From: Pelagomonas calceolata
Taxonomy: Eukaryota
DNA length: 64,000 nt
Reading direction: 5' to 3'
Assembly: GCA_918797485.1 (NCBI GenBank)
Contig: CAKKNE010000002.1
Coordinates: 1,302,001 to 1,366,000 of the forward strand
In this document: one piece after another, positions 8 to 43,943 of the stretch
Numbering within the stretch: the first letter of the stretch is position 1
Layout: every line of letters begins with the position of its first letter
Position numbers and translations under genes: made by a program
Notes under the pieces: generated by a model
The model's database searches: none
The model's input: the letters and a program-made list of their open reading frames with translations, nothing else
What the model was told of the DNA's origin: nothing

Positions 8-778
8 GTGCTCAAGCCGTTGCTACGGAAGGCCGCCGAGGCGTCTCAAGGGACACTCATACTGAAGGAAATTGACGTCGACAAAGAAAGACCGATCGCG
101 GAGGCGCTGGAAGCGACGCAGCTGCCCTGCGTCTACAGCGTGAGGGACGGCAAGTTGCGAGACGTCATCGTCGGCCTGCCGCGGTCGCACCAGGACCTCG
201 CGGCCTTCGTCATGCGCGCCATGGATGGGGAGGGCGGTGCTTCCACAGTTCCGGGCAGCCGGACCGTCAATTTGGCGCGCGTCGCGGGCTCGGCCGCCCT
301 GGGCGCGGGCGGCCGCGAGGCCCTGGCGGCCAAGTGCCGCGGCGCGCTCGACGCGTGTAGGGAGCTTGCGGCGTCCGACAAGGATACGGTGATGGAGGCG
401 CTCAAGACGACGAAAGCGTACCTAGAGCGGGCCTACGGCGGCAAGCCGGTCTATCGCGACAACGCCGTGTTTGTGGAGAACTGTGTGGAAATCAAACAGT
501 GAGTTAGGTTATCCTGAGATTTGTTGCGGGACGACGTCGCGTCGATGGCGTGGGGCGCCCGAAATTTGATTTCCACACAGGTGGAGAAGGTGGCCCCCTG
601 CGCGCCGGCTTTGGACTTGTTTGCGGCGGCTGGGTACGTGGAGATTCCCGGCGACCCTGAGGGTTCAGATGACGAGAAAAGAGACGCCTTACACCCGACG
701 CATCGCAATCTAGCCGTCTTCGAGCTCTGCTGCGCCGAGATCGACAAGGCAAGAGATGAGCTGCGCGTGATGACGTGA
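8..778 (+). CDS. Thioredoxin-like + PUB-like domain protein (5' partial; exons <8-472, 581-778)
   Basis: ORFs 8..502 and 521..778 join in frame (NAVF|VEKVAP) after removing intron 473-580. Trx-like 'IDVDKE..IA..L....LPCV' and PUB-like 'ALDLFAAAGY' segments are present. Confidence 0.65.
473..580 (+). mobile_element. Introner intron (GT-AG, 108 bp); element 481-580
   Basis: TIRs CTGTGTGGAAATCAAA (481-496) and TTTGATTTCCACACAG (565-580). Perfect 8-bp TSD GTGGAGAA at 473-480 and 581-588. Splicing restores the frame. Confidence 0.95.
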
Positions 779-801
779 AGTACACCTAACAATATCTTAC
801 A

Positions 802-1383
802 CTACAACTCAGCGCGCCGCCACTCGATGTCCAGCGCGCAGCCCGAGGCGACCACCATGTTCGCGACCGGGCAGCGCTCGTGCACGATGCGACCGATCTG
901 CTCGATTGTCGCGTCGTCGTCGGCGTCAATGCTAACGTGCGCGACGCCCCAGATGCGCGTCAGGCGGCTGACGGCCGGCGCCGGCGCGTCCACCGGCAGG
1001 TGCGCGGCGCCTTGCGGATCTCGCGACGCTTCCAGCTCGAAATCGATGCTGCGTATCTTCGTGCGCAGCATTCTTGCAACAAAATCGGCCGTCGCGCCCT
1101 CGCACCCTATCAAGGCCGCCAGCAGCGTCTCGACCGGCTGCGGCGCGGTGTCCTTGCCGCCGCCGGAGGGCGGCGTGTCCGTATGGAGAATGTGACCGCG
1201 GGTCTGCGACGTCGACGCCGTGCCTTGGGTGGTGCCGGTGATGCTGTAGAGCTTTTCACGCGGTTTGCGCGTTGATAGCGTTCGTTGTCTCGCTGTGAGA
1301 GCTCGTGTCGTGCGTTGGCTCACTGTGAGAGCTCGTGCCACTGTGAGAGCCTGCACTCGTTTTGCGAGCGTGGCGGCCAGCAT
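802..1383 (-). CDS. OsmC/Ohr-like protein, probable mitochondrial presequence
   Basis: 'GGGKDTAPQPVETLLAALIGC' and 'RCPVANM' two-Cys OsmC motifs; ATG at 1383. Confidence 0.8.
   Translation of the reverse strand: MLAATLAKRVQALTVARALTVSQRTTRALTARQRTLSTRKPREKLYSITGTTQGTASTSQTRGHILHTDTPPSGGGKDTAPQPVETLLAALIGCEGATADFVARMLRTKIRSIDFELEASRDPQGAAHLPVDAPAPAVSRLTRIWGVAHVSIDADDDATIEQIGRIVHERCPVANMVVASGCALDIEWRRAEL
1291..1350. repeat. Short imperfect direct repeats (CACTGTGAGAGCTCGTG x3) in presequence-coding DNA
   Basis: Copies at 1291, 1321 and 1339. Confidence 0.7.
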
Positions 1384-1487
1384 TGCTCTTCTACTGCTCT
1401 GGAGCGCACCGGAAGTCTCCCGTAAGATGTTCAATGATACCCAGTGGCAGTTCTAAGGGTTATTCACCAGCGCTGCGGGCAGACAGA

Positions 1488-1511
1488 GCTAGCGTAGATA
1501 AAGACACTAGC
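1488..1511 (+). promoter_or_regulatory. Bipartite CTAG intergenic motif
   Basis: GCTAGCGTAGATAAAGACACTAGC between divergent genes. Confidence 0.6.
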
Positions 1512-1598
1512 TCACAGTGCACTCGACCCAAAACGTGCTACAAAGGCTGCCCACGCGCAACGTACGCACCAATAAGTGCGATCAGGCGGCACAGGACA

Positions 1599-2573
1599 AT
1601 GCTGGATGGTAATCATAGCAAGAAGCATCGCGTGAGGACGACGCCGGTGAGTCTTCTGCCGGGGGACCGCAAGGAGCGGCTCTGCGCCATGGCCGCCGAG
1701 GCCAGGGAGAAGCTTCGACCATGGGCGCTGCAACCGGCATCGGGCGTGAGCACGTTCAACCGGCTTTACATGGCGCTCGGCGAGCAGGAGAGCGTGGGCG
1801 GACTGCTGCACATCGCATCACTTGGCGCGGACGGAGGCGATGTGACGGAGGAGCACATCGACGCGTTCCTTGAGGAGAGCAATGCGTTCTTCGATGGCGT
1901 CTTCCACACGGTGAACCAATTCGCGATCGTCGCTGCCCTCACTTTTACCATCTCCGTGCCGCTAGCCGTGTACAACCTGGACGGCATCGAGACGTTCGGG
2001 ACGCGGGACGCGGCCCTGGGCGGCGACGGGAGCCCGGCGTGGTATCGGGCCTGGCACGGGCCGCGGGCGCAGCACGCCTGCCACTGGGCGTCGTGCTGTC
2101 TGATCTCCCTGTCGGTGTACTGCAGCTGGGAGGCCATCTCGCGGTGCTTCATGCTCATTCCCACCTATAGCCTCTACATGCCGGACATGGAGGCGAGGCT
2201 TCGATTCTTTATGCTCGCCCCGGCGTCCTGGCGTCTTCCGCTTGGACGGGTCGCGGCGACGACGTCGGCGCGTCGTCTCGAGACCCACGCACGCCATCGC
2301 CGCAAACGCAGGCTTCACTACGATCAAATCATGTGGGTCTGGCCCTACACGTGGGGGAGCGGGTGTCTCCTGCTGTTGGCGTTGCCGTTCCTCGGTGCCC
2401 GAATTAGTCCGGTCGTGTCTATGTGTACAGCCATGCCCGCGGTCGGTGCCATTCGCATGATCAAGTCGACGTGCTGGAAATGGGGGAATATGTCGGGAGA
2501 TTTCCAACACGAGCTCGCGAAGCAGCTGCTCGCCGCTGACGACAGTTCGGGCGGGGAAAAGGCCGTAAGCTAA
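1599..2573 (+). CDS. Multi-pass membrane protein, tandem paralog A (exons 1599-2212, 2312-2573)
   Basis: Clearly similar to 2743..3606 (SLLPGDR..RLCAMAAEAREKLR.W). A 99-bp segment absent from the paralog is bounded by GC...AG. Confidence 0.75.
   Translation: MLDGNHSKKHRVRTTPVSLLPGDRKERLCAMAAEAREKLRPWALQPASGVSTFNRLYMALGEQESVGGLLHIASLGADGGDVTEEHIDAFLEESNAFFDGVFHTVNQFAIVAALTFTISVPLAVYNLDGIETFGTRDAALGGDGSPAWYRAWHGPRAQHACHWASCCLISLSVYCSWEAISRCFMLIPTYSLYMPDMEARLRFFMLAPASWRLPLGRVAATTSARRLETHARHRRKRRLHYDQIMWVWPYTWGSGCLLLLALPFLGARISPVVSMCTAMPAVGAIRMIKSTCWKWGNMSGDFQHELAKQLLAADDSSGGEKAVS
2213..2311 (+). other. GC-AG intron (99 bp, in-frame, stop-free), degenerate introner
   Basis: Removal gives LRFFM|LHYDQI, which aligns with paralog LRFFMQDHKEI. 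Contains the ACGCCATCG motif and ends AAACGCAG. Confidence 0.75.
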
Positions 2574-2574
2574 T

Positions 2575-2595
2575 CTAGCGTATCGACACACTAGC
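2575..2595 (+). promoter_or_regulatory. Bipartite CTAG intergenic motif (variant)
   Basis: CTAGCGTATCGACACACTAGC, ~150 bp upstream of paralog B. Confidence 0.5.
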
Positions 2596-2742
2596 TGCAG
2601 CGCCGGGTCGACTCAAACAGCGCGGTGTGCTGTTGCTGCTGCCGAAGCGCAACGAACGCGACGCAGGGATACTCGCACGGTCTAAAAACGCGCGGCCAAG
2701 GCTGCCCGCGAGCAATACGTGCGATCAGGCGGCTATCACACC

Positions 2743-3606
2743 ATGCTGGACCAAGGCAAAAGACACCGCGTGCGACCGACGCCAGCGAGCTTGCTGCCTG
2801 GGGATCGGAATGCGCGGCTCTGCGCCATGGCTGCAGAGGCCAGGGAGAAGCTGCGGCATTGGTCTAGTCAGGAGAAGACGAACACGTTCGATTCCCTGTA
2901 CGACGGGGTCGGGGCGCATGAAGGCTGCGGCGGGTTACTCCGCATCGCAGCGCTCGACCCGACCGGCTCCGGGCATTTGACGGAGGCGGAGGCGGATCGA
3001 TTCCTGTGGGAAAGCAGCCAGTTATTTGAGGAATTGATTCACTTTCTGAACCTCGCAGCCCTCGTCGCGGCGCTAGCGTTCACTGTCGCCGTTCCACTCG
3101 CCGTGCTCAATCTCGACGGACTCTCGACGTTCGACGCGATTGACCCGTCCCTCGGCGGCGCCCAGAGTCTGGGTTGGTACAAGCGGTGGCGCGGACCGAG
3201 GCTGCTGCATGCGATGCATTGGACGGGGAATGGTTTGATCGCGCTCTCCGTCTACGCTTCTTTCAAGGCCATCGCTTTGTGCTTCGTGATGATACCTAGC
3301 TATAGCTTCTACCTGCCGGACGTCGAGTCGCGGTTGCGATTCTTCATGCAGGACCACAAGGAGATCCAGTACGTCTGGGCCTATACCTACGGGAGCGTGG
3401 CGTTGCTGCTTCTATCGCTCCCCTTCCTCGCGGCGCGAATCTCACCGGTCGCGTCCACGTGCGCCCTCATCCCGGCGGCCAGCGCCTTCTCGGTGTTTCG
3501 GGCCCTCTTGTTTCGAGCCGATCACATGGCGAACTTCCAGCTCGACATCGCGCGGCGACTCATGGCGGACGGCGGCGAAATATTTCGGGGGGAGGTCGTA
3601 AGCTAG
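2743..3606 (+). CDS. Multi-pass membrane protein, tandem paralog B (intronless)
   Basis: Open ORF, hydrophobic segments, paralogous to the upstream gene. Confidence 0.8.
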   Translation: MLDQGKRHRVRPTPASLLPGDRNARLCAMAAEAREKLRHWSSQEKTNTFDSLYDGVGAHEGCGGLLRIAALDPTGSGHLTEAEADRFLWESSQLFEELIHFLNLAALVAALAFTVAVPLAVLNLDGLSTFDAIDPSLGGAQSLGWYKRWRGPRLLHAMHWTGNGLIALSVYASFKAIALCFVMIPSYSFYLPDVESRLRFFMQDHKEIQYVWAYTYGSVALLLLSLPFLAARISPVASTCALIPAASAFSVFRALLFRADHMANFQLDIARRLMADGGEIFRGEVVS

Positions 3607-4822: not shown

Positions 4823-4860
4823 CTGTAGAAGGCGTAAAGTCCAAAGAATCACAGTAATAG

Positions 4861-6304
4861 TTAAGAAAACCGGAACGTGCACGCGAGCGGCAGGTGGTCC
4901 GACGGGTGCACGAGGTCCGGGATCGCGCCGGCCGGCGCCGAGACGTCGCTCCGGTCCAGGGGCTCCAGGGACTCGTCGTAGAAGACATAATCGATCCAGA
5001 GTGACCGGTCGCCGTTCTTCGACGTGCACACGCCCTCGCAATCCGCCCAGCCGTGCACGGGCGCGAAGGCGTCCCGTAAGGTCCGCTCGCCCCAGAAAAA
5101 CGCGCCGTCGCCGCCCCACCCGGTGGCGTGCTTGAAGCCCACGTCGCCGCTCCAGACGTGCGTTTCCGACGGCGGCGTGTTGAAATCCCCACACAGCACG
5201 ACCGCGTCGTCGTCGTCCGCTCTCTCGGCGACTATGTTCTTTATTGTGGCGAGCTCTCCGGCGCGCACCTCGCCGGGAAAGCGGGTCACGCCGGGCCCGT
5301 CGCCTGTGTGGAATCAACCAGTGAGTCGGGTGCACACCGCTACGCCATCGAGCAGGCATCGCGTGCAGGTCCTGATTTCCACACAGCCCGTCGCGCGACG
5401 TCGTCATGAGGTGCACGGCCACGACACACACAATGCGACCCGACGCCTTGTGGCGCAGCCGCGCCACGGCGGCCTGGCGCCGGTCCGCCGCCGGCAGGTC
5501 CGTGGCCGTGACGCCGCCGCCCTCCGTCGGCGGCACGACGAGCGGGTGCCACTTCTCCAGCAGGTCGTGGTTCGACAAGGACACAGTCGTAGTGTTGCAG
5601 GCGATTATTCGATCGCTCTGCTCTTCGACGAGCTCGAACACATCGGAGCGCCAGAAGACGCCGAGGCCCGCCGGCGGCGTCCGGCCGATCAGCGGGTCCG
5701 TGAAGAAGGCGCCGTCGTAGCCTTGGGACGCCATGGCCGCGTGGAAGGGCTGGTCCCCGTTCTTGTACGAAGCGTGTACATTATGGATGTCGTACTCGCA
5801 CAGCGCCACGATGTCGGCGCATGTACAGACGTCAAACACGCGCGGGCCGCGCGCGGCCCAGTCGTAGACCGTCGCGTCCTGCTCGGAGACCTCCGCGAAG
5901 AGCCGGAGGCCCTCGGCCTCGCCCAAGGAGCGCCGCAGGACGCCTCGCAAAGTGGTGGCCACGGTAGGCAGGCCTCCCTTGACGTACAGCACCTTGTCCT
6001 CACTCTCAAACTTCAGACCGCTCAGCTTCTCAGGAATGTCGCTATCGGACCTAAGCACCCTACACCCCCACAACGCGCGCATCGCCGCGTAGTCGCCGCT
6101 ATGGAAGTTCTTGTGCCAGTGGCGCTTGTACTCGTCATCCACATTCGTGCGCCGCCAGGTGCCAAAGGCCTCGCCCGTCTTGTCCTCGATCCGCGCTCGC
6201 GTCTGCGGCGAGACGTTGAGCACCCACGGGATCGTGTTGCTGCCGAGGGACCGCGCCAAGATGTTGTAGGTCAGCACTCGGAAGGAGTGGCCGTCCGGTT
6301 GCAT
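4861..6304 (-). CDS. CCR4/nocturnin-like EEP phosphatase/deadenylase (exons 6304-5395, 5303-4861)
   Basis: Motifs 'VLTYNILA', 'LCE', 'LCGDFN', 'IDYVFY' and 'PSDHLP'; frame restored by the introner intron. Confidence 0.85.
5304..5394 (-). mobile_element. Introner intron (GC-AG, 91 bp); element 5304-5386
   Basis: TIRs CTGTGTGGAATCA and TGATTTCCACACAG. Perfect TSD CCCGTCGC at 5296-5303 and 5387-5394. Spliced product reads SRDGPGVTRF. Confidence 0.93.
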
Positions 6305-12026: not shown

Positions 12027-12027
12027 A

Positions 12028-16100: not shown

Positions 16101-16944
16101 CACTAATTCCGCGACGGACCCGGGCGCCCCGCCGCCCATCCTGTGTGGAAATCAACACTGAGGCGGGTGAAGTCACGCGTAGCCTCTCTCGCGCTCGTGT
16201 CGAGTTCGCTCGACGCGGTCCGAATGGCCTCAAAATCGAAAAAGAAACCACCAACTTCATCAGAAGATGGAGACGACGCGCGCCGATGGCGTGAAGGCAC
16301 CGCGGCCGTCGTGAAGGTTTTTTTTCTGCGCCGCGCCCTACAACGCATCCTGGAAGCCCAGGTACGTCGAGATCCAAAGCCAGTAGACGCCAAAGTACCA
16401 CACTACACCTAACCACCCGAGCAGGCCCGAGTACGGGATGTCGAACTCGGCCGCGATGATGGAGTCTGGCGCCGTCGGGCCGTCGCGCGCCTCCTCCAGG
16501 ACTTCTGGGGGCGTCGGCGCCCACTTCTCCCGTAAGTCGAGAGAGACGAGCGGCAGGATCGCGTTGATGCCTTTCTCGTACCTTTGTGGAAATCAAACAG
16601 TGAGATAGGTCGCATCGATGACGTAGAATCTCCACGCCATCGAGCAGACGAAGTCGCAATGTTGCGTCGATGGCGTGAGGCGCTTGATTTGATTTCCACA
16701 CAGCCAAGTGCAGCGACAGGAACGTTACCTCTACCGCGACGTCTACGTCGTCCGCGCTCGCGGCGCCTACCTTGCGGTAGTAGCGGCCCTTGACATAGCC
16801 CTTGAGCCACACCCGTCCTTCCTTCCACCAGTTGTGGAAGGTGGCGAAGCACACCCAATTGACGACGACGACGAGCCGCTTCGCCTTGGTCACTGGGTTC
16901 AGGATGATGGCCCAATTTATGAGAATCAGCCAGTTGAACGACAT
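13173..16944 (-). CDS. Large multi-pass membrane protein with two Tudor/SH3-like segments (exons 16944-16712, 16581-16366, 16140-13173; true start uncertain)
   Basis: The 988-aa ORF extends upstream in frame across two TIR-bearing introns (FLSL|YEKG and IST|MGGG). Confidence 0.6.
16141..16365 (-). mobile_element. Introner-derived intron with one intact TIR (donor inferred)
   Basis: Perfect CTGTGTGGAAATCAA at 16141 supplies the AG. The GT at 16365 restores the frame. No clear second TIR or TSD. Confidence 0.55.
16582..16711 (-). mobile_element. Introner intron (GC-AG, 130 bp); element 16582-16703
   Basis: TIRs CTTTGTGGAAATCAAA and TTTGATTTCCACACAG. The GC donor lies exactly 8 nt outside the TIR; the TSD has diverged. 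Confidence 0.8.
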
Positions 16945-18229: not shown

Positions 18230-19550
18230 CTAATGATAATAGAAGTCCTCGAAGATGTGCAAGTCCGGGTGTTCTTGGGCGAGCCAGCTCCACGAGAAGC
18301 CCTGGCCGCACGTTTCCGTGCCGAGGTCGAGGATCCGGAGCGTCGTGATCGCCGCGATGGCGGGCGGGAGAGAGACGACGTCCGCGTTGCCCGCGACGAC
18401 GAGCAGCACGAGGGCCCGGAGCTCCGCGAGCCACGCGGGAAGACCTTGGAGGCCCGCGTCGCGGAGCGTCAGCTCGCGCAAATGGACGAGGCCGCGGACC
18501 GCTTCGGGAAACGGGGCGAGCGGGTAGCCCTGGAGGTCGAGGGCCCGGAGCGCCCGTGGGTCCGCGAGCGCGCGGTCCAGCGCCCGGTTGTTCTCGATCG
18601 CGTCGCCCTCGAGGCCCGATTGCGGCGGCGGCACCTGTGTGGAATACAAATTCCAAGGCCATAGCCTAACTCACTGGTTGAGTTCCACACGGGCGGAACG
18701 GCGCGCACGAGCTTGAGCCGGATCAGCGGCATGCCGCGCAGGGCCTCGGCGAAGGCCGGGATCGAGACGTTCGTCGCCGCGAAGGCGCGGAGGCGCAGCT
18801 CGTCGAGCCACATCGGGCACGGCCGCCAGCGGTGGTCCCCTATGTCGAGCTCCGCCAGGTGCGGCAGCCCGCGGACGTGGTCGAGATTTGAAGGCCCGTA
18901 AACGTGGCGAGCGATGCGCAGCGTCGCTGGGAGCGGCGGAATATCTCCGACCGGCCGCGCGAGCTCGAGCTCGACGAGGCGCGAGAACCCCGCGAGCCAG
19001 GGCGGCGTCCGCACCGTCGGTCCCAGCGAGAGCGCCCGCAGGTTCGGCAGCGCGCGGACCGCGTCGGGCACGGCGTCGGCGTCGCGCGATGCGTAGATAG
19101 ATAGGACCTCGCAGGTCCGGAACCGGTCGGCGGCGTCCACCGGTGGCGACCTGTGTGGCACCGTCGCGTCGATGAAGCGCCGTCAAACGTCGCTTTCCGC
19201 GCCGGCGGCGACCAGTGGGCGAGGAGCGTGAGGTCCTGAACGTCGTAGTTAAGTGCGGCCCGAAAGGCCCGCGCCACCGCCCGCAGCGTGCCGATCGCCT
19301 TGAGGCGTTCCTGCGTCCGTCGCGACTTCGCGCCCGCCGGATCGTGACTCCCGCTGTTGCTCCCGTCCAAGTCCCACGTCCCGCTCACGCACAGGGCCTC
19401 CTCGACGTCGTACCCCCGGGCCGCCGCGTCCAGGCGATGCTCGAGCGGGACGGTGTGGTTCAGGGTGAGGGGGATCGCGGCCGTGCGCGTGAGGTACTTC
19501 ACGAGGAGCGGGACGATCTTCTCGGCACGCTCGACCAAGACATCGCTCAT
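18230..19550 (-). CDS. Leucine-rich repeat protein (exons 19550-19213, 19150-18700, 18634-18230)
   Basis: LxxLxLxx repeats; three ORFs join in frame across two introner introns. Confidence 0.8.
18635..18699 (-). mobile_element. Introner intron (GT-AG, 65 bp)
   Basis: CTGTGTGGAATA...GAGTTCCACACG; TSD GGCGGCAC/GGCGGAAC (7/8). Confidence 0.88.
19151..19212 (-). mobile_element. Introner intron (GT-AG, 62 bp), decayed TIR
   Basis: CTGTGTGGC...TTTCCGCGCCG; TSD GTGGCGAC/GCGGCGAC (7/8); spliced product reads HWSPPVD. Confidence 0.85.
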
Positions 19551-19962: not shown

Positions 19963-21953
19963 TTAGTCTGAACCAGAAACGACGTCGAGGCGGCAGCGCC
20001 CGTCCAACCCCAGCGAGTAGCGGAGCCGCGGCCCGGCGTCGAAGCGCACGAGGCACCGGCTTTCGGAGCCCTCGAAGCCGTCCTCATAACGAACGACGAG
20101 GCCGACCGCGTCGGCCGCGCAGCTCAGCGACACCTCGCCCTCGATGGCCCGGGCCGGGAACCCGTCGGACAACTTGAATTCCACTATCTCGCGCTCCGCG
20201 ACGACGTCGCACTCGTACTCATCTAAATCAATGGGAACGAGCTCCCGCCGCGCCGCGCGCCACGCCGCGGCCGCCGCTTTTTGATCAACCCCGCAGATCC
20301 GGTCCGGCAGCGGCGCGTACGCCTTTGACAGATCAGAGGACCGGATCGCGACGGCGACGACGACCGCGCGACCCGGCGCGACGCGCACGCGCCGCCCCGC
20401 GAAGAGCTCCCTCAGTAAAGCGCATCGCCGCCAGAAGCGCAACGCGCAAGCGACGGGGTGGCCCTCGAGGTCGTGGTAGAACGGCTCGCCCGTCAGAACA
20501 ATAACTTCAGCGTCGGTCGAGGGCGCCTCACTCAAATCAGAATATATGGAGAGGGCCACTTCGAAGCGCCTCGCCACATTTGATGCGTGCAGCGCGTCGC
20601 GCGCGTCGGCGCACCAGGCCACCGCATTATCACAGCCCGCGCGCAGGCACGCGAGCGCGCAGATGGCCCCGTCGCCGACGTCCCAGACTTCTGCGGTGTC
20701 GTCGCCCCTCAAACAAGACGCCGCGAGGGCCCGGTGGTCGCTTGGTAACGACGCGAGGCGTCCTGTGGAATATCCCACATGTAATCCGCAAGCACATAAA
20801 GCAGCCGCCGACGTCACGAAGCCGGCGTCGAAGAAGACGTCGAAGACGATGTCCGTGTCCGTGTGCGTCGCCTTCAGGCTGAAGGGCACGCCGGGGCCGA
20901 TGTCGAAGGGCGCGTCCAAAGGTTGGGCCATCTGCCACCAGTGGTCCTGGAAGTCGTCCGCGTCCTCCCAATTCGACACGCCCTCGCCGAAGCCCAGGTC
21001 CATGCGCCAGCGGTAGCCGACGGCGTCGACGCGGCCCCGTTTTTGGACTTGTAGATCGACCTTCGCGCCGGCATGCGCGCCGCGCGCCGGCGGGCTCGAG
21101 AAGCTCAGGTCGAGGACGCGCACGTAGGGCGTGAGCCGCCTTGCGTTACCCAGCCGCGCCGGCGCACACGCCGCGCCGCCCCGGCACCGCTGCCGCCTGT
21201 AGTTGTCCGGGCCCCGCCGTTTCGCGAGCGACGCGTCCTCGAAGAGCGCCGCCTCGACGTACGCACCGCACGGTATGATTGTAGCGTCTTTTGATGCAGT
21301 GCCGCTCGCGAGGACCTCGCGCAGCGTCGGCAACAGGCCCTCTCCTAACAAGCCGTGGTCCGCGAGCTCGCAAACCTGTGCGCAAATCGAGCGGTGACCA
21401 CGCCATCGAGATGAGCGCCGCGACATTTGATTTATGCACTGTCGCCCACCACGAGCGACGCCGGCGTCGGAAGGCTAATAGCGTCGGACCGCGCATTTAC
21501 AATTGTACACCGCTCCTCTTCAAAACCTCCGGCGCGGACGCACGCCGTCGCGACTTTTGACAGAGCGGGCTCCATCTCGCACGCGACCACATGACCTATT
21601 CGGTCCTCTTTGCACAGGAGCTGGGTTAATAATCCAGTGCCGGCGCCGATTTCCAGCGCGACGCAGCCCTCCGGCGCAGCCTCGGCTGCTTGTTTAATCG
21701 CGCGCGCGTAGGCTCGATTACGTTCCGAGTCGTGGAGCATCGCCGCGAGCCACGGCTTGCGCGCGAAGTGCGCCACCGCGTCGTCGCGGTCGTCTTCGAG
21801 CCATCCTAATTCACAATCCTCGTCGAGCGCGCCTCTTAGTGATTGCTCGCGGCCCTCGGCGGCGACGCGGAGGCCGTCCCAGATGGACGTGGCGGTTACT
21901 AGCTTTTCTGGCTGGTGCTCGGTTTTGGTCTTTTTTGTGGGGGATTCGGCCAT
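19963..21953 (-). CDS. PRMT7-like protein arginine methyltransferase, tandem domains (exons 21953-21450, 21375-19963)
   Basis: 'MLHDSERNRAY', 'LEIGAGTGLL', 'CEL.D.GLLGEG' and 'DHWWQ', plus a degenerate second domain. Confidence 0.85.
21376..21449 (-). mobile_element. Introner intron (GT-AG, 74 bp)
   Basis: CTGTGCGCAAATC...TTGATTTATGCACTG; TSD TCGCAAAC/TCGCCCAC (6/8). Confidence 0.85.
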
Positions 21954-24498: not shown

Positions 24499-25974
24499 CG
24501 CGACTCGCGAGGAGCGGCGGCGCGCGCGCGTCTGTGTCTCGGTGGCGCGCGGCGCGACTTCAGGGATCTGTCGCGGCGCGTCCCGCGCGACGCTCGCGTT
24601 TTCCAGCCTATTGATGGCCAGTACTCGGCGCGTTTAAAGCCCCCGCAAATTGGGGCAGTGCACGTCGAAAGCGGAAGGGTGGAGGTATCGTTCTAGGCTG
24701 CCCGGACCGATGGGATGAGTATTACTGTGGACTCTCTGGCTTGCTAGTAACCATGTTACGCTAGCTTGGGTCAGATTTTATTTTTGGTGCAAGCAGCTAC
24801 TGAGGCATTATTCGCAACCGCTGGCCAACGCTGCGCTTCTACAAAGCGCAGCTGGACCGCCTGCAAGCGGCGATTGCACGCGTGGCGATTTGTACGCACA
24901 GATGCACGCTGCACCACAGAGCAGCCTCTGCAACAACAAATGCGAAAACGCGACGGCTGACGATGAGCGTGCTCAGAGCGAGCGCAGCGGTGGCGCGTGT
25001 CAGCAAGCCCGCGCCGGGCCGCGAGCTGCACCGGCCGGCGTGAACTTCGCTCCGTCGTCGCTGGGCGCGGCTGGCGGTCTACAAGGGAGAGTTTCTAGGC
25101 CACCAAGCCATGCGCAGAGGTCGGCGCCGCGAGTGCGCCTCGTGGAAGTATCGCGTCCTAGCTTGGTCGTCCTTGGACCAGGTGTTGCTTCGAGAACGGG
25201 ACCGCTGATGCACGCCGCAGACTTCTGCTCCTGCGCGTGACGTGCACGATGTCCTTATTTTCTGCCTCGGAAGTGCACATCAAGTCGACGACGTCGCCAC
25301 AACGCCATCGAGACGGAAAGGTGTCTGTAACAGCGTCTGCTCGATGGCGTGGAAGTTTTAGCAGTTCTGAATATCGTCGATCAAGATCCGCGTCCTGTAT
25401 GTCTTCGCGGCGGCGTCGTCTCGAGGACTGCGTCCGCTCTAAAGGTGGAAGTTGTGCGAGCTTCGTGTCGCGATCTGGTGCCGCCGGGCCGGCTTGTGAC
25501 GTCCTATTTCGACAGCTGAAAGGTCGACGTGCTTAAGGGCGCGCCCGGGTCACGGGCCGGTGGTAAGGCCCGAGGTCCAGTGCATCCTCGGCGACATCGC
25601 GTCCTCGGTCGCCGGGCGAGACGCTCGCGGTTCATGGGAGCGCGCACTCGGCGTACACCTCGGGCCGCGGGACGGCGGCGAAGCTCGTGGAGACAGATGA
25701 CCGCCGCCGCGGGCCGCATCGCTCCACGTCGATGGCCCTGGCCAGCTGGAGCTCCCGCCTTTGTGCGGGTTTCTCTGCGTTTCTCTAGTTCTATGTAAGC
25801 GAAGGCTGCTATTTAGTATGTAGCACTCGCTGGCGTCGTTTGGGTGGGGGATGTACGGTTCCCAAAACGCGGCCGTCTCCCAGGCCACTGAGCCTCGACT
25901 CGCGTCGCGCAGGAGCAGCCCCGGCCGCGCAGCGCATCAATTGGACGCAGAGCGAAGTCGCAGCATTTCACGCC

Positions 25975-28682
25975 ATGGAATATCTCAGCGCCGAACTCCT
26001 TAATGGCGCGCCAGTCAAGCTGTTCGAGGTGGAGCATGTGAGAGGTGACTTGGGCGTTGATGCCGTCGCGCGGCTGGTCACGCCGCCATACGTGCTCGCC
26101 TGGCCGAACCAAGGAAAGTGCTCCTTCTACGCCGGCGGCGCGAAGCGCCTCGATTTAGCTCGCGCGCGCGTGATAGCTCATACCATGAAGTCGTACAGCG
26201 ACGTCGGCTGGAACATAAGCGATCCTGCGGCCGAGACATTCTCGTTTATTGTAAGAGTTACAGACATGGAGGAGGGGCTCACCGCAGACGGGCACAGGAG
26301 CCTGAAGAGCGGGGAGGAGACTGCCAAGCGCGAGTGGTTGGCGGGCACCTTCGCAAGGTTCGGAACGAACAACAAGAACGTCTGTGGTGACGCCGTCTAC
26401 AAGGACCACGACGGTTCGGTGTGTTACTACGGCGTCGCCGCGAGCCTGGCCGGCCTCCAAGAACCCCGGAACCGGCGCCGAGCAGCGATTATCGCCGGCC
26501 AGCTGCAGCCGCCGCCCCGTTGCAAAATGTGGCCGGACGACGAACTCGATATTCTTTTTGCCCACGCCGAGGCCAACTTCCCGTTCCGCAACTGGAAGCT
26601 CTGCGTCGAGACGCTCGTCGAATTCGGCCACGCTAGCCGCTCGGTAGCCGCATGTTCTCGCATGTTCTCTAGATATGCGGACGACTTCGGCGTAAAGAGG
26701 GTAACGCGAGAAGATATCAACGAGGCGCGCAGAGCGAACATGATGGGTCGCGAGTTGGTATTGCAAACCCAATTCCGTGCTGAGGCGAAAGACCGGCTCG
26801 CGACGGCGGTCGTCGCCGTGGGCGCCGAGGTCGATGCTATTGTAGAATACGACGCGGAATTCTTTGTTCAGTTCACAAAGGAAAAGATCGCCGAGGAGAT
26901 CGAGCGGCTGCGCGACGATCGCCCCGAGGTCTATGCAAGGGCGGGGCAGGGGCTCATGCAGGAGCCACAGCCGGTGTCTTCTGCGTCGGCGTTGTCTTCT
27001 GGGTGGAGACGACCGGCCGACGCCACGTGGCCGCCGACCGCGGTCGCGCACCTCGCGGGCCGGACTTTAGTGTTTAGTGGGAAATGTCACGAGCCGCGCC
27101 GAAATCAATAGTACAAGAGAGAGAGAGTCGGCTCGATGGCGTGGCGGTCGAATACATCGGTCTCACTGGTTGATTCCACATAGGCCTCGAGGTGCGGGGC
27201 GGTGCGTCGCAGCGCGACCTCCTGCACGCGTTGCGAAATGTGGATGGTGTGGACGACGTGAAGACGAGCCCTCGCCTTACCCACGACTGCATCGTGGTCT
27301 ACGCGCCGGACGTCGCAAATCCGCCGCGCGGCAAGTACGGCGAAGCGATGAAGCGCGGCGGCTACGACACGATCGAGCTCGGGACGCTATTACAGATGCT
27401 GCCTGATGACGCCGTCCCGAGAGGCTTGCAGGCGGACGTGGCCCGCCTACGCGCGGCTCGCGCGGCTCGCCCTTCTTCCGAGCGGCCCCAGAAGCCGAAG
27501 AATGCCGACGATCTCGTGACGCACCACGTCGCATTAACGGGCAATGCTCCTGGAGGTATCATCCAGATCGACCTCGCCGAGAAGCTGAGCCCGCACGTGT
27601 CGTCGATTCATCTCGGTGGCATGAATCAGCGGACGACGCTCCTCCTCGTCGGTGACCTTAGTCGTGTCGTCGGTGGCGAATCCACGAACCTTAGAAAGGC
27701 GGAGAATGCCAACATACCGACGATCACGTACTCGGAGCTCTTTAGACTACTGCCTGCGCTCGCACCATCCTCTGGGCCGGCATCCTCTAGGCTGGCGTTG
27801 CCTCGGGCGCGATCGACTGTTGTGGCGCCGGGGGGGCTTCCCTGCGCGATCTGCGAGACTTCTTGCGATGCAAGGTTCGCGTTCTGTGGCCAGTGCTGGC
27901 GCTCGCCGCTCAAAGCCCGCCAGGCGGCCTACTGCGACGCTCTGGCCGCCCAGCGGGACGCACAACGGGAGATTATTGTCCGGGCGGCACCTTCTCTGAG
28001 GCGTTACGGTGATATTGATCAGCCACCCGCTTCGACGTTACCGACCAACATCGAGCAGCTCAAGTCCCGCGTCGAGTCGGCGGAGAGACTCTTGGGGCGC
28101 GAGTGGTGTCTGTCTCCACCGGAGCGGCCGGAGCCGCCCCCCCAGATACGACGCGAGCCGGGGGCGGCGGCTGCAGGCGCGCCGCACCCGTCCACGCCGG
28201 CACCGCCGCGGGCGCCCCCAGTCGCGCCGCCTCGGCCGCCGACCACGCGCCGCCCGTCCGCGCAAGCGCTGGTCGTCGATGCGGGACCGGCGAGCGGTCC
28301 GGTCGTGCGTGCTCGTAGTGGTCGAGGTGGTGCGAGCGGTCCGGTCGTGCGTGCTCGTAGTGGTCGAGGTGGTGCGAGCGGTCCGGTCGTGCGTGCTCGA
28401 AGTGGTCTAGGTGGTGCGACGAGGACTCAGTCTGGCCACTTGTCGGCGAGCGCCCCTGACGTCGACATGACGAACGTGAACACGCCCCAAGATGTCGAGC
28501 AATTTCGGGATTTCGGTGTGACTAAACTCAGGAAGCTCGGGCTGTCCGCCATGCGCACGATCCTCAGAGCGGTACGTGAGCCAGTGGAAACAACAGCCAC
28601 AAACGGGGGGGCGGTGCAAAAGGAACTGGCCGATCGTATCCAGAAGTATTTCGACACGCACGACCCCCCCCCCCGCGCCTAA
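25975..28682 (+). CDS. Multidomain nuclear protein: Myb-like, 2x BRCT-like, Zn-ribbon, SAP-like (exons ~25975-27085, 27184-28682; start uncertain)
   Basis: 'WPDDELDIL..RNWK..RS...C', 'LAGRTLVFSG', 'VALTG...TTLLLVG...KAE', 'CAIC..CGQC'. The ORFs join across an introner. Confidence 0.6.
27086..27183 (+). mobile_element. Introner intron (GT-AG, 98 bp)
   Basis: CCGCGCCGAAATCAA...TTGATTCCACATAG; TSD GTCACGAG/GCCTCGAG (6/8); spliced product reads GKCLEVRGG. Confidence 0.88.
28290..28415 (+). repeat. Coding minisatellite, 42 bp x3 (ASGPVVRARSGRGG)
   Basis: Near-perfect units at 28290, 28332 and 28374. Confidence 0.92.
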
Positions 28683-28730: not shown

Positions 28731-30767
28731 CTATGTTAATTGATAGTTCGGTCCACCCCCTCCTTCCGGCACCGTCCACTTGATATACTCGAGCGGCATC
28801 TTGATCGAGCAGCACTTGCAGTGCACGCAGTTCTGGGCGTTAATGACCAATTCGTCGTCCGGGTACTCGTAGACGCCCGCGGGACAAAAATTCGCCTCCG
28901 GGGCCCCGTATTCCCGCAGCGACCGCGCCGTCTTGCCCACCATGGAATCCCGAAACTCGTCCTTCACGACTAAATGGGAAGGCTGCGTGTCCGCGTGGTC
29001 GACCACGGCCCGCGCGACGTTCTCCAACAGAGGGAACGAGAGCTTGCCGTCGGGTTTTGGATATTGTATAGGTTTGGCCCGCGGGTCGTCGACCTTCGCC
29101 GTCGTCGAGGAGTCGACGGAGTCGTGGCGGAAGGTCCAGGGCTCCTTGCCCTTCATCACATAAGCTGAGGCACCCGCATAAGCTACCCCGCCGAAGAGCC
29201 CCCACTTCTTAAACGCGGGCTTGTAGTTCCTCACACCATATAACTCGTCGTAGACCCAGGACGCCTCGAAGGCCTCCTGGTAGCCGACGGCTTCCCGTTC
29301 CTCGGTCTGGATACTCTCAAACACCTGTGTGGAAATCAAAATTTTACGGCGCGTTCACGCCATCGACGCGACGCCTGCTCGATGGCGTAGTGATGCCGGC
29401 TCCTCATCGCTCGACCGAGCCAGTACGGCCGCGTCATCGCCGAGAAATGACTTAGTGAAGAATTGTCGGGTGCACCCGACGCACTGGTTGATTTCCACAC
29501 AGACAAACACGTTCTCCGCGGCGAGCATGCCGCTCTTCATCGCCGTATGCGTGCCCTTGATCTTGGGCACGTTCAGGAAGCCCGCCGAGCAACCGATTAA
29601 GACACCACCGGGGAACGTGAGCTTGGGCACCGATTGCAACCCTCCTTCATTAATCACGCGAGCCGCGTAAGCGACACAATCGCCGCCCTCCAAGTGTTTG
29701 GCCATGGCCGGGTGGTGTTTGAGTCGTTGAAATTCTTTATATGGACTGAGATGAGGGTTCGCGTAGTCCAATCCAACAACTAATCCCACATGTACTAGAT
29801 TAGGAGCCATATGATATAAGAAGGACCCACCGTACGTGTCAGACGCCAGGGGCCAGCCGATCGTATGTTGGACCAGGCCCGGTTGGCACTTCTCTTCGGG
29901 AATTTCCCAGACCTCCTTGACCCCTAGTCCGAACTGCTGCGGGTCGCAGTGCTTCCTCAAGTCGAAGATGGCCATGACCTCCTCGCTGCAGGAGCCGCGC
30001 GCGCCCTCGGCCAACAACGTCTGCTTGGCCAGGAGCTCCATGCCCGGCTCGTAATTTTCTCCCTTCGAACCGTCCTTGTTCAGGCCCACATCCCTTGTAG
30101 CGACGCCGCGCACACCACCACGATCGTCGTACAACACTTCGGCGGCCGAGAAGCCGGGGTAGACCTCCACACCTAGAGCTTCGGCCTTCTCGCCGAGCCA
30201 ACGGACGACCTGACTTAATGAAGCCACGTAATTGCCGTCGTTGTGCAACGATGGAGGGCAAGGTAAGGGTATGGCGCCCGTCTCTGAATGCAAGTAAGAG
30301 AAGGTGTCCGCCTCGACCTTCGTTTGTAAAGGGGCATCGGCGTCTTCGCGCCAATCCGGGAGGAGCTCGTCCAGCGCTCGCGGCTCAAACACATTACCGG
30401 AGACAACATGAGCGCCTACTTCACTTGCCTTCTCGAGCAAGCAGACGGAAATTTCATTTCCTGTCGTCTCCTCCAGCTGCTTGAGGCGGATTGCGGCGGC
30501 TAGTCCCGCGGGGCCGCCTCCCACAATTACGACGTCGTACTCCATGCTGTCCCGCTCTATCGGCTCCTCCTCGCCGTCGACGGTGCTGGAGAGGCCGCGC
30601 GCCGCGGCTGGCGTGCTGGAGAGGTGGCGCGCCGCGGCTGGCGTCCGGGAGAGGCGGCGCGCCGCGGCTGGCGTGCACCGAGCGATAGTGCTCCGAGCAG
30701 TGGACAAGCTGCGGAGGCGCGTCGCTGTCGCGGCGCGCGCGCGGAGGAGTATCCTGGCCGACCGCAT
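28731..30767 (-). CDS. ETFDH: Electron transfer flavoprotein-ubiquinone oxidoreductase (exons 30767-29511, 29324-28731)
   Basis: 'DVVIVGGGPAGL', 'PKIKGTHTAMKSGMLAAE', 'FCPAGVYE', 'NCVHCKCC'; mitochondrial presequence. Confidence 0.96.
29325..29510 (-). mobile_element. Introner intron (GT-AG, 186 bp); element 29325-29502
   Basis: Perfect 15-bp TIRs CTGTGTGGAAATCAA and TTGATTTCCACACAG; TSD TCAAACAC/ACAAACAC (7/8). Confidence 0.95.
30583..30676. repeat. 30-bp x3 tandem repeat in the ETFDH presequence (TPAAARxLSS)
   Basis: Units at 30583, 30613 and 30643. Confidence 0.88.
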
Positions 30768-36913: not shown

Positions 36914-37326
36914 ATGCGCGCCGCGCAACTACGCACTGCACTGCTGTGGGCGCTCTGCTCTGTGGCAGCAGCGCAGGAGGGCGTTCCAAGGCGTGGCCCT
37001 CCGCGCGGGCCCATCAAAGAAGATAAATCCACATTTTTCGGCAAGGAGGGCGACCAGTCGCATCCGTGCGGCAATCAACCGGCGGTCCGCGCCGCGGCGG
37101 CGTCGAGGACACGCCCTCGACGCCGTCGAGCAGTCGCACGCGCCGTCGCATCGACGGCGTACTCAGGCTTGATATTACAACGCGCAGGTCGCAGCGCGAG
37201 GCGAGCCCCTTCACGCAGTTCGCGCTCACCGGCTGCGCGCTCCTCCTCGTCGGCCTCGGTTTGCTCCAGATCTTCGGGACGATGGTTACTGTGAAAGCTA
37301 GAGACGAGACGAAGAAGAAGCAGTAG
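36914..37326 (+). CDS. Small signal-peptide + single-TM protein (exons 36914-37056, 37188-37326)
   Basis: MRAAQLRTALLWALCSVAAA... joins across an introner to a TM segment and KKKQ tail. Confidence 0.7.
37057..37187 (+). mobile_element. Introner intron (GT-AG, 131 bp)
   Basis: TSD GTCGCATC/GTCGCAGC (7/8); degenerate TIRs CGTGCGGCAATCAA and TTGAT...CGCGCAG. Confidence 0.82.
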
Positions 37327-38537: not shown

Positions 38538-40236
38538 ATCGCGTACGGCCTCGACAAGAAGGGCGACGAGCGCAACGTGCTGATCTTCGATCTGGGCGGC
38601 GGCACCTTCGACGTGTCTCTCTTAACGATCGAGGAGGGCATTTTTGAAGTGAAGGCGACGGCGGGCGACACGCATTTAGGGGGCGAGGACTTCGACAACC
38701 GCATGGTCTGACTCAGTGTCCGTTTTTGAACTTCGAGGTCGCGTCGATGGCGTCACCGCGACGTCACGCCACCTCCACTTCTTCGACGTGGCCGCGAGAG
38801 CGTCCACGCGTCTCGTGAGTGACCATCGGTCGACACAGGTCGACTACTTCCTGACCGAGTTCAAGCGCAAGTTCAAGAAGGACCTCAAGTCCAACCAGCG
38901 CGCCCTCCGACGCTTGCGCACGGCCTGCGAGCGCGCCAAGCGCACGCTGTCGTCGTCGACGCAAGCGCACCTCGAGATCGACTCGCTCTTCGAAGGCATC
39001 GACTTCAACTCGACGATCACGCGCGCGCGCTTCGAGGATTTGAACATGGACTACTTCCGCAAGTGCATGGACCCCGTCGAGAAGGTCATGCGCGACGCTA
39101 AATTATCCAAGTCGCAAGTCAACGAGGTCGTGCTCGTGGGCGGTTCCACGCGCATCCCCAAGATCCAGTCGTTGCTGGCCGACTTCTTCAACGGCAAGGA
39201 GCCCTGCAAGTCGATCAATCCTGATGAAGCTGTTGCGTACGGTGCCACCGTCCAAGCTGCGATCTTATCTGGTTCGGATTCTTCGGAAAAGCTGTCTGAC
39301 TTGCTGTTACTCGATGTTACTCCTCTGTCGCTCGGCTTGGAGACGGCGGGCGGCGTCATGACTGCTTTAATCAAGCGCAACACGACGGTGCCGGCCAAGA
39401 AGTCGCAGACCTTCAGTACCTACGCGGACAACCAGCCGGGCGTGCTCATCCAGGTCTTCGAGGGCGAGCGCTCCATGACCAAGGACAACAACCTGCTCGG
39501 CAAGTTCAACCTCGACGGCATCCCGCCCATGCCGCGCGGCCAGCCGCAGATCGAGGTGACCTTTGATATTGACGCGAACGGGATCCTCAACGTCTCCGCC
39601 GTCGAGAAGTCGACGGGCAAGGAGCAGAAGATCACGATCAAGAACGACAAGGGCCGCTTGTCGCAGGACGAGATCGACCGCATGGTCGACGAGGCCGAGC
39701 GCTACAAGGCCGAGGACGAAGCCAATAGGGTGCGCGTCGAGGCCAAGAACAGCCTCGAGAACTACTGCTACTCCATGAAGAACACCATGTCCGACGAGAA
39801 GCTCGCTTCTAAATTATCTGATGACGACAAGTCGACGGTCACCTCAAAGATCGACGAGACGACGTCGTGGCTCGACGCGAACCAGATGGCCGAGAAGGAG
39901 GAGTACGAGGCGAAGCAGAAGGAGCTCGAGGCGGTCGTGAATCCCATCCTTGCCGCTCTTGGGGGCGGGGCCGGAGGTGGAATGCCTGGGGGCATGCCGG
40001 GCGGTACTTGTGCGGTGTCTGAATTTTACTGAATTTCGCGTCGATGGCGTCGACGCGACTTCCCGTCGCCGTGAGGCCGTGTTCATGATCACGAGAAGCT
40101 ATCGCTGCGATCTGTTACTTGACTCCGTCTTTTCCCCACAGGTATGCCCGACATGGGCGGCATGGGTGGCGGCATGGGCGGCGCTCCGGCCGAGGAGCCC
40201 GCCGACGAGGGCCCGAAGATCGAGGAGATCGATTAA
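37989..40236 (+). CDS. HSP70: Cytosolic heat shock protein 70 (exons 37989-38705, 38839-40003, 40142-40236)
   Basis: 'GIDLGTTYS', '[14 protein letters not shown]', '[11 protein letters not shown]', GGMP repeats and C-terminal GPKIEEID. Confidence 0.97.
38706..38838 (+). other. HSP70 intron 1 (GT-AG), decayed introner
   Basis: Restores DNRM|VDYF. Start GTCTGACT resembles downstream GTCGACTA; ends CGACACAG; contains CGTCGATGGCGT. Confidence 0.88.
40004..40141 (+). other. HSP70 intron 2 (GT-AG), probably decayed introner
   Basis: Restores GG|MPDMGG...EEID; contains CGTCGATGGCGT; ends TTCCCCACAG. Confidence 0.85.
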
Positions 40237-41113: not shown

Positions 41114-41342
41114 GATGAGAGCGTAGTTAAGCGGGCACGGATCTTAGACTAACCCTTGCTACGAGGCCGTACAAGATGATGTCTCAACCTCTCAGGTGTT
41201 TTTTGGTATCTGAGCGTCTCAGAGAGTTGAACGCTCGACCGCGTGTTTGTCTCTGCTTCAGAGACTCGACGATTGACCGCGAAAACGCCTGAGCGAGCGC
41301 TTGGTGCCCCAAACCCGAGCAACCTAATCCTCAACTCCGGGA

Positions 41343-41365
41343 GCTAGCGGTCTGTAAGACACTAG
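41343..41365 (+). promoter_or_regulatory. Bipartite CTAG intergenic motif
   Basis: GCTAGCGGTCTGTAAGACACTAG between divergent genes. Confidence 0.65.
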
Positions 41366-41508
41366 GGAGGCAAAAAAATTTGCGAGGTCGATCGTCACGG
41401 CTCGCAAACGCAGCCCTTGGCAACGACATGGTTGCAAACCGTTGCTTCTAAAATAATTGCGAGCGCGACGTAGGAAGGGCTGCGGCGGAGGGCAGCCCAG
41501 CACCAAAG

Positions 41509-43943
41509 ATGGCGGCAGCCCGCAGCCGCAAAAAGCAAAACGGCGTCCTGCCCTGGATCGCGTTGCTTCTATTAGCGGTAGTAGTAGCAACATTCGTCTA
41601 CGCCCACGTGCACGTCGTGTCGCAGCACGGCACGGCTGTACATCCGCACATGCCGCCGCCGCGGGCAAGGCAGCTCGAGGAACCCGTGATACCAACAATG
41701 ATTGAGACGCCGGCACCATCACAGACAAAACGCAAGAAGACGATCAACGATATCACAAATGAACTGGACCCCATGGACCGGCTGCTCGAGCAGTCGCGGA
41801 TGCGCGCGGAACGAGGGGACGTCTGCGCCGACGATGTTTTTATTGTGCACTGGACGCACGTGCCGAAAGCGGGCGGCACGGCCTTCGCGGGCATGGCGAA
41901 GAAGATCTCCTGCGCGCGGAACCCGGCCATCGCTTCCTCGAACCCGTGCTGCGTCCGCGACGTCTGCGTGGCGGAAGGGTCGTGCCATTCCACCGCTTCC
42001 ACGTGTCCTCTAGTGCAAGGAATAGGCAAGCACACGTCGAACATGGGTCGGTTGGCGCTCGTGCCGTGCTGCGGGCGGGAGTGGTACCTGTCGACCGTGA
42101 TCTCGTTCTTGTGCCGACGCGGCGTGGGAAGCGGCCTTCAATATGTGTCGCGTCGATGGCATAGTGGGGCGCGAAGTCCACACGCGCCGTCGCGGCGATG
42201 GCGTGCTGGTGTGGTAGAAGTGCTACCCTCGAGACGACGCGCCGCGCTGATCAACTTGGTGTGGCCGCACGATGGCGTAGAGGGTGGCGTCGACGGTCGT
42301 CGTCCGCGCAGGCGCTACGCGATCCGGCCGGCGCCGACGGACGACGAGCTGGCCAAGTTCGGCCTAGCTTATGATCCGCATCGACCGTACCACCCCGTAT
42401 ATAACGGTGCAGCAATCAAAGCGTGACCTCCGTGATAGATGGCACGCACGGATACCACCTTCGAACGTCGCCGCGATGGCGTGCCGGTGGGGTAGAAGTC
42501 TCATCAAGCCGTCGAGCAGACGCGGTCGCGTCGATGGCGTCACGTGGACACTGAACCCCATGCCGCGCCATCGCCGAGAAACGACACCGATCGATGTCCG
42601 CACAGGTCAAAGTGAAAAAGGAGCGGCTCACGGGAAAAAGTGCGGCGCCCATGGGCGCCCTCGCGGCGACGGCGGGCATGGGCAAAGGGACCCAATTAGC
42701 TCTACGAGCCAAAGGTTATGCCAGTTGGCCGGTAGAAAAGAGGGTCGAATTTTTTGCGAAGACCGGAGTCAATTGGGCGGAGCTGAAGAAACGATTGACC
42801 GAGAAGCGCATGGCTCCTAATGATGACGAGTCTACCGGGTTGCTGAAGGAGTTAAGAGCTGTGTATGATCGCGTCGCCCTCCCGAAAAATATGACGTATG
42901 GTGGCTCGCAAAAACATAGATTTCCGCGACCGGGCGAGCCTTCCCTACAAGCTCGCTTCTGTGCGAAGTCCTCGAGAGACTTGGTGGAGGGCATAGACCG
43001 CCCCCACGAGTGCTGCCACAAGCGAGGAGTAGGAGCTTCAAGCGCCACGATGATCCGCCAACCCTGGGTGCGGGGCGTCTCGGCCTATTTTTATCGAGGC
43101 CACAATCCCAATTATGACGCTTATAAATTACGACCGGGCCTCTGGGTCCATCCGAACGATCGAAAACTGTATCCAGCACTCATCGGTCAAAAAACATACA
43201 CTTTTAAGGAGTACCTCGGCATGCCCGAGTATCAAAATGTGATCACGAAGATGTTCGGGGATAGCGCGGAGTGCCCCCAGGTGCAGCACTGCCGGCGGAA
43301 GCCTGGCTCGGACATTTCGGCTACTTGCGACATGGTGACCGGGTGCCACGGGTACCGGAACACGACCTACTTGAACGAGGAACACATTGATGCAGCAGTG
43401 GAGAGTTTGAAGGCGCATGCCTTCGTGGGGTTGCTCGAGGCGTACAACGCTTCCGTGTTACTGGCTGCTGCGGAGTTCGGCGTTCATAATCTCGAGGAGG
43501 ACGATTTTGCCCAATCTAGACCGTCTGCCGCTCTCCAGGCGGACTGTAGTCCGTCTCGGGTCTTGCGGGCGGACGCCGACGCGTGTCGAGCGGCCTTCTC
43601 GGCGTATTCCTTGGACAATATTGTGTATGAGCGAGCTCACAGACTATTCTGCGATCGCCTGGACGTGAAAGGGCTGCTTGAGCGAGATGATGTTCGCAAG
43701 GAGCTTACGAAGAGAAAACTCTGTGGCGAGGTCGACTATTCGAAGGTAGAGCACGTCTGCGGCCCTCTGGAGACGCCCGCGGCGTTTGAGAAATTGAAGA
43801 CGCTGCGCGCGGCCTGCGTCCCGGGGGGCCTCGGCCGTCTCAAAAAGAACCCGCGCCAGCCGCCGCCTCTCCCCAGACCGCGGGAGTGGTGGCTGAGCAC
43901 GTACGGCTATCACTACGACGGCGACCGGACGCCGGCGAGCTAA
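41509..43943 (+). CDS. Golgi-type (type II membrane) sulfotransferase-family protein (introns 42111-42311 and ~42421-42605)
   Basis: N-terminal TM; 5'-PSB 'HVPKAGGT', 3'-PB 'IRQPWVRGVSAYFY', 'FVGLLE', 'LD..VYE'. Confidence 0.8.
42111..42311 (+). other. GT-AG intron (201 bp, in-frame, stop-free) with introner internal motifs
   Basis: Several CGATGGC motifs; ends TCCGCGCAG; spliced product reads FLRYAIR. Confidence 0.65.
42421..42605 (+). other. GC-AG intron (donor uncertain: 42409, 42412 or 42421)
   Basis: Required to join the ORFs; ends TCCGCACAG; ATCAAAGC resembles downstream GTCAAAGT. Confidence 0.65.

Follow-up and report, generated by a model that had tools for sequence, protein, structure and literature searches.

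At least 12 short introns in a 64-kb stretch of nuclear DNA from Pelagomonas calceolata (the whole stretch is referred to as the window, and all coordinates are window positions) are copies of one family resembling miniature inverted-repeat transposable elements (MITEs), spread over about ten different genes. The family carries a 15-nt terminal inverted repeat (TIR), CTGTGTGGAAATCAA, and an 8-bp target-site duplication (TSD). RNA joints showed that the element and the upstream TSD copy are spliced out as one piece without a scar, the GY donor (G followed by a pyrimidine) being supplied by the TSD and the AG acceptor by the end of the TIR. The mRNA keeps the pre-insertion sequence because element and upstream TSD copy are both removed, and an acceptor is available in either orientation because both ends carry the same repeat; elements of both orientations are spliced. 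These introns are thus very probably copies of a short non-autonomous DNA transposon family that leave the transcript along with one TSD copy, as described for introner elements (IEs). The window has a GC content of 59-68%, and one exon each of the ETF-ubiquinone oxidoreductase (ETF-QO) and HSP70 genes gave a 100% match to a P. calceolata database protein; the genome paper gives an average of 63% GC (PMC9481584).

An earlier sequence-only reading had attributed nine introns sharing the TIR, or a decayed form of it, to such a family. All nine were found where predicted and all are formed by the family. Its list did not include the TIR at 16141, which belongs to a 201-nt intron in RNA, or the two introns of the HSP70 gene. 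The family introns are as follows.

473..580, plus strand: introner intron in a thioredoxin-domain gene; element 481-580 in sense orientation with perfect TIRs; TSD 473-480 = 581-588, GTGGAGAA, 8/8 matching
5304..5394, minus strand: introner intron with GC donor in an endonuclease/exonuclease/phosphatase gene, the downstream exon carrying Pfam PF03372 profile positions 136-225; element 5304-5386, antisense; TSD 5296-5303 = 5387-5394, GCGACGGG on the minus strand, 8/8
16141..16341, minus strand: introner intron of 201 nt; acceptor formed by the perfect TIR 16141-16155, far TIR decayed; TSD GTAGGGCG/GATGGGCG, 6/8
16582..16711, minus strand: introner intron of 130 nt with GC donor; element 16582-16703, antisense, TIRs with 1 and 0 mismatches; TSD 4/8
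18635..18699, minus strand: introner intron of 65 nt in an LRR-like gene; sense; TSD GTTCCGCC/GTGCCGCC, 7/8
19151..19212, minus strand: decayed introner intron of 62 nt in the same LRR-like gene; TSD GTCGCCGC/GTCGCCAC, 7/8
21376..21449, minus strand: decayed introner intron of 74 nt in a gene that we take, from reading its translation, to encode an arginine methyltransferase; core TCGATGGCGT present; TSD 6/8
27086..27183, plus strand: introner intron of 98 nt; antisense, upstream TIR decayed; TSD GTCACGAG/GCCTCGAG, 6/8
29325..29510, minus strand: introner intron of 186 nt in the ETF-QO gene; element 29325-29502, sense, perfect TIRs; TSD 7/8
37057..37187, plus strand: predicted decayed introner-type intron; TSD GTCGCATC/GTCGCAGC, 7/8
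38706..38838, plus strand: HSP70 intron 1, 133 nt, GT..AG; family core GTCGCGTCGATGGCGTC; end ACACAG; TSD present only with a 1-nt indel allowed
40010..40141, plus strand: HSP70 intron 2, donor as annotated; family core present; end CCCACAG

Splicing of the element-derived introns

RNA mapping covered positions 16000-29324 and used two raw polyA RNA runs (X21 and X22) along with the RNA contigs of runs X5 and X7, which come from other studies; an earlier read mapping of positions 1-20000, which included two DNA runs, had given a joint table swamped by cross-joints between element copies. Exact joints were obtained for six introns, namely 16141-16341 and, at the predicted bases, five of the nine of the sequence-only reading, which had proposed such a mapping (spliced reads given as X21+X22).

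16141-16341: joint 16139>16341 (cut +1); 3+1 reads; X5 and X7 contigs
16582-16711: joint skipping 130 nt; 5+4 reads; X5 and X7 contigs
18635-18699: joint with cut +2; 4+4 reads; X5 and X7 contigs
19151-19212: joint with cut +6 and 7 shared letters; 49+38 reads; X5 and X7 contigs
21376-21449: joint with cut +2; 3+2 reads; contigs
27086-27183: joint GT..AG; 11+4 reads; contigs

The strand of the read pairs agreed with that of the gene at each joint. The internal GTGAG of the left element end was not used as a donor at 18635, as seen in RNA, or at 29325, as annotated.

The other introns were assessed from contigs, proteins and reading frames. At 5304-5394, a piece of an X5 RNA contig starts at 5386 (record position 446), which is where a transcript lacking TSD and element would stop matching, and therefore supports this intron. 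Over the junction predicted for 29325-29510, AAEN is directly followed by VFES in P0001, an annotated P. calceolata protein. Removal of 473-580 restores the frame, two near-identical proteins in the database, P0408 and P0361, continue uninterrupted over the junction, and three of four distant homologs show no gap there. Removal of an element plus one TSD copy, as claimed previously, was thus borne out for these three and for the five with RNA joints; for 37057-37187 the part of the claim that stood is that removal yields a stop-free frame rich in GC at third codon positions (GC3), its sole support.

In the HSP70 gene, the Pfam HSP70 match is split at profile position 230/231, and intron 1 is fixed by the annotated protein P0121, which reads DNRM directly followed by VDYF. 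Intron 2 was placed by comparing P0121 with the window exons; a second database protein, P0122, continues into this intron, an indication of its retention. The TSD of intron 2 is ambiguous because it is located in the variable GGMP repeat region. A form of intron 2 with six extra codons (TSD plus 10 nt) was dropped, the GGMP region varying among close relatives.

Element ends joined to other flanks were also found in the polyA RNA reads (696 at 481 and 529 at 581), so the RNA includes unspliced copies from across the genome. In run X2, the depth at the element was about 1.3 million vs about 650 nearby, a value that is not a copy number and that hints at one to two thousand copies.

Target-site duplications and splice-site letters

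Comparison of the upstream 8-mer with the 8-mer following the acceptor in the nine introns gave matches of 8/8 for 473 and 5304, 7/8 for 18635, 19151, 29325 and 37057, 6/8 for 21376 and 27086 and 4/8 for 16582, in line with the earlier count of eight recognisable 8-bp repeats when 6/8 or better is accepted. The donor is in each case the first two bases of the upstream 8-mer (GT in seven introns, GC in 5304 and 16582), and the acceptor is in all nine an AG at the element end, exactly as had been read from the sequence.

Relation of the copies within the family

The elements share a common plan, with a left end made of the TIR followed by [A/C]CAGTGAG, a core of CACGCCATCGAGCAG ... GTCGCGTCGATGGCGTG and a right end of AAATTTGATTTCCACACAG. 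With up to 3 mismatches allowed, the 15-nt TIR had 13 matches in the window vs 0.67 expected (largest count of 2 in 100 shuffles), while the last 10 nt of the TIR had 15 matches vs 2.44 expected and the internal core TCGATGGCGT had 49 matches vs 7.44 expected. A family profile was built from six window copies (481-580, 5304-5386, 16582-16703, 18636-18692, 27094-27183 and 29325-29502); it matched these seeds at E 3.8e-8 or better, a recovery that is circular, and the match of the 27086..27183 copy at E 4.2e-19 is likewise that of a seed. The sole non-seed match was a partial copy at 16141-16203 (E 3.7e-4).

The window copies derive by deletion from a 203-nt form, the shorter ones retaining termini and core; for the 29325 copy this was seen in alignments to 203-nt environmental copies. 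The copies at 19151, 21376 and 37057 are strongly decayed and their termini match the TIR only in part. Relative to the gene, three window elements are in sense and four in antisense orientation. In predicted RNA folds of four introns the TIRs pair, a consequence of the repeats being inverted; two introns have z of -5.9 and -4.4 and the remaining two -1.1 and -1.6, and no functional claim is drawn from this pairing. A scan relying on the TSD (GY...CAG with matching 8-mers) gave 85 matches vs 53-80 in ten Markov controls and is therefore powerless for finding decayed copies.

Among the introns recognised in the window, 12 of 13 belong to the family. This census is partial, as a crude GC3 map and inspection of the dienelactone hydrolase region gave no complete list. 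The earlier statement that the family accounts for nearly all introns holds to that extent; the intron at 22325-22571 carries no family feature.

Environmental copies and the GY bias

A scan of metagenome contigs with the 15-mer returned at least 121 loci, and the figures of this section refer to the matches listed. Family copies were present in 77 of the 121 loci listed. Among 66 full-length copies, whose termini are conserved, the abutting repeat matched at 8/8 in 31 and at 7/8 in 15; exact abutting repeats occurred only at length 8, with none of the 66 copies showing one at lengths 6, 7, 9 or 10. The modal element length was 203 nt (15/66). In viral contigs, the 15-mer had 53 chance matches and no family copy was found.

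All 46 copies with a good TSD had GY in it, at one end only in 17, at the other end only in 18 and at both ends in 11, the background chance of GY at neither end being 0.67. The coding strand was called for the 32 of these copies lying far enough from a contig end, using a simple strand caller that was right in 10/10 window cases. With TSD and element removed, 30/32 copies had a stop-free GC3-rich frame over the junction, and in the 23 informative cases the GY side agreed with the called coding strand 21 times and disagreed twice. Element orientation in the environmental copies was sense in 13 and antisense in 17. GY follows the gene and not the element, a pattern more readily explained by the survival of spliceable insertions than by a target preference.

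A 203-nt subfamily sharing only its termini with the Pelagomonas copies was found in contigs of 70-75% GC.

L006, L014, L031, L034, L041, L046 and L071: loci of the high-GC 203-nt subfamily, GC 0.70-0.75

The best named relatives of the nitrate reductase encoded at L031 are Aureococcus anophagefferens proteins (76-88% identity), and L046 has three element copies in one P4-ATPase gene. Positions 1-784 of another locus, L022, are 82% identical to window positions 62013-62796, and L022 has a 203-nt element further on, at a point that would fall past the window end. An environmental close relative is represented by a 43,730-nt contig with uninterrupted open reading frames (ORFs) for ETF-QO (P0003, 542 aa, 88% identical) and HSP70 (P0128, 653 aa, 98% identical), which suggests that the three introner introns of these two genes may be absent in the relative.

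Origin of the introns

Insertion would have occurred by cut-and-paste with a transposase encoded elsewhere. In coding sequence, the survivors would be the insertions whose target 8-mer opens with GY on the sense strand, non-spliceable ones being lost, and old copies would then decay by internal deletion and substitution while GY and AG persist. The same arrangement could in principle arise if small transposons had inserted secondarily into older introns, given that MITEs are often located in introns and that the decayed copies at 19151, 21376, 37057 and in HSP70 are not datable. However, the RNA-confirmed introns consist of exactly TSD plus element with no further intronic sequence, and the uninterrupted ORFs of the close relative would point, indirectly, to intron-free sites; secondary insertion is considered very unlikely. 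Spread of the elements through an RNA stage, by the reverse splicing proposed for introner-like elements of fungi, would make the repeats splice signals; it could draw on the abundance of element-bearing RNA, hundreds of reads ending in other flanks at 481 and 581. It is hard to reconcile with exact 8-bp duplications of variable sequence, with 15-nt inverted termini and with the occurrence of both orientations relative to the gene, since a reverse-spliced intron could only be sense, and its probability is regarded as negligible.

A different question is whether GY at the TSD start reflects a target-site preference of the transposase instead of the survival of spliceable insertions. GY was present on both strands in 11/46 TSDs vs about 10% expected given at least one, and T at TSD position 2 together with A at position 7 would agree with the target consensus of hAT and was counted for a preference; T was found at position 2 in 20/46 and A at position 7 in 27/46 TSDs, values that are confounded by the GY splice requirement. 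Against this, GY occurred at either end regardless of element orientation (17 vs 18) and on the coding strand in 21/23 cases, and a target preference is judged unlikely, though less so than the two alternatives above.

Insertion of a transposon family whose spliceable copies survive remains the favored account, and several observations weigh against it. The intron at 37057-37187 is without transcript or protein support, the TSD of the 16582 copy matches at just 4/8, and HSP70 intron 2, as annotated, starts at no TSD-like 8-mer. The 18635 intron had 4+4 spliced reads vs 49+38 for 19151 in the same gene, a tenfold difference that may reflect inefficient splicing or a count disturbed by reads from other copies. 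The empty-site alleles suggested as a check in the sequence-only reading were not seen as DNA, and in contigs from two DNA runs both the 5304 and the 18635 element are present. No transposase domain was detected in the 122 window ORFs of at least 150 aa, in agreement with the earlier remark on the window. The TIR-flanked transposase ORF that the sequence-only reading had proposed looking for was not found either: in the 121 metagenome loci listed, no ORF lies between paired TIRs spaced 400-9000 nt apart. The published annotation table has, among the entries listed, one Tc1-like DDE gene and no hAT. Because no transposase was found, transposition is inferred from the TIRs and TSDs.

The sequence-only reading had also linked the 8-bp TSD to hAT transposases. 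An 8-bp TSD is typical of hAT and not exclusive to it. The family resembles hAT superfamily MITEs in this TSD length and in its short, TIR-bounded, non-coding copies, and differs in that no hAT transposase was found in the window ORFs, the listed metagenome loci or the listed annotation entries. Its terminus CTGTG would depart at the second base from the hAT terminal motif, and a literature search on introners and hAT found nothing relevant. The TSD length therefore stands as described, while the assignment to hAT, for which it is the sole basis, is unsupported.

Other features of the window

Three further features concern the family or the intron census.

42500..42605, plus strand: decayed family copy; core and long-variant motif present; end CGCACAG; flanks GTAGAAGT/GTCAAAGT, 6/8
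25290..25355, no strand given: core-only fragment with internal palindrome and no TIRs; unspliced, X5 and X7 contigs running through
22325-22571, plus strand: non-family intron of 247 nt, GT..AG; RNA-confirmed with 85+90 spliced reads

A coding intron at 42492-42605 was considered and dropped, no coding signature being present in its flanks. Reads of other family copies also map onto the 25290..25355 fragment. The intron at 22325-22571 ends shortly before the start codon of a class-III aminotransferase gene, has no family TIR, core or TSD and is the only clearly non-introner intron seen in the window.

Two other patterns were observed in the RNA data. About 800 RNA reads, and contigs, join 8436-8454 to 11913-11930 with six other letters in between and, outside these two stretches, run on in both directions into sequence that does not resemble the window (consensus agreement 0.98-0.99), which looks like a highly expressed transcript from elsewhere sharing two short segments. 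Across positions 17431-17735 the RNA runs and contigs differ from the window by clustered fixed changes and small indels, and at 17735 there are 103+51 reads that break off from the window and go on consistently into another sequence; strain divergence or rearrangement may lie behind this.

Comparison with known introner systems

IEs are the best-documented route of burst-like intron gain in eukaryotic genomes, and the window is a clean textbook case, with RNA-shown scarless removal, both orientations and both GT and GC donors. The finding is a correct rediscovery, in which the observation is real and the interpretation largely right and already known; little new is added because introners had been described before, in the P. 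calceolata genome paper and in earlier studies of Aureococcus. According to the genome paper, genes have 0.45 introns on average and intron lengths peak near 210 bp, a peak that it links to Aureococcus IEs (PMC9481584). Supplementary Note 3 of that paper (Guerin et al. 2022, Commun Biol) gives 956 putative IEs, whose TIRs are conserved and whose splice sites are GT or GC at the donor and AG at the acceptor (PMC9481584). The likeness to the present family is close, covering the organism, repeat-derived introns, donors, acceptor and TIRs, and the difference lies in TSD length, TIR sequence, orientation and decayed copies, which do not appear in the passages available of that source (PMC9481584). 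Decayed copies such as those at 19151, 21376 and in HSP70 would probably escape the published criterion, which asks for 90% overlap with a repeat family (PMC9481584), and the published IE count is probably an underestimate for the genome because decayed copies are a large share of the introns here.

Beside this underestimate there are two further modest additions: GY in the environmental copies tracks the coding strand and not element orientation, and a second pelagophyte, of higher GC, has elements with these termini around a different internal sequence. A more far-reaching reading, possible though doubtful on present data, is that one family made almost all P. calceolata introns, far above 956, with most copies decayed past repeat-based detection, and that the same termini drive the 203-nt subfamily in the Aureococcus-related pelagophyte, so that a single long-lived or horizontally moving transposase would have seeded introns across pelagophyte genera.

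In the portions available of Gozashti et al. (2022, PNAS), P. calceolata is flagged as introner-bearing, families from Pelagomonas metagenome-assembled genomes are listed with TSD and TIR status undetermined, and an 8-bp TSD is given for an Aureococcus family (PMC9860276). The Aureococcus sp. family 4 introners of that paper share this 8-bp TSD; according to its Fig. 2F they carry both splice sites and add 12 nt to the mRNA, whereas the RNA-confirmed Pelagomonas junctions add none (PMC9860276). The high-GC subfamily of the Aureococcus-related pelagophyte shares with the Pelagomonas copies its termini and nothing else. Several features of introners are found here, namely many similar copies serving as introns of unrelated genes, TIRs, a fixed-length TSD, and scarless splicing with one splice site from the element and the other co-opted from the TSD. 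The comparison drawn earlier with the introner mechanism described for Aureococcus anophagefferens (Huff, Zilberman and Roy 2016, Nature, as summarized in a citing preprint) is apt, and the 203-nt mode and 8-bp TSD found here agree with the A. anophagefferens introners, whose length is cited as about 210 nt in the corresponding passage of the genome paper (PMC9481584).

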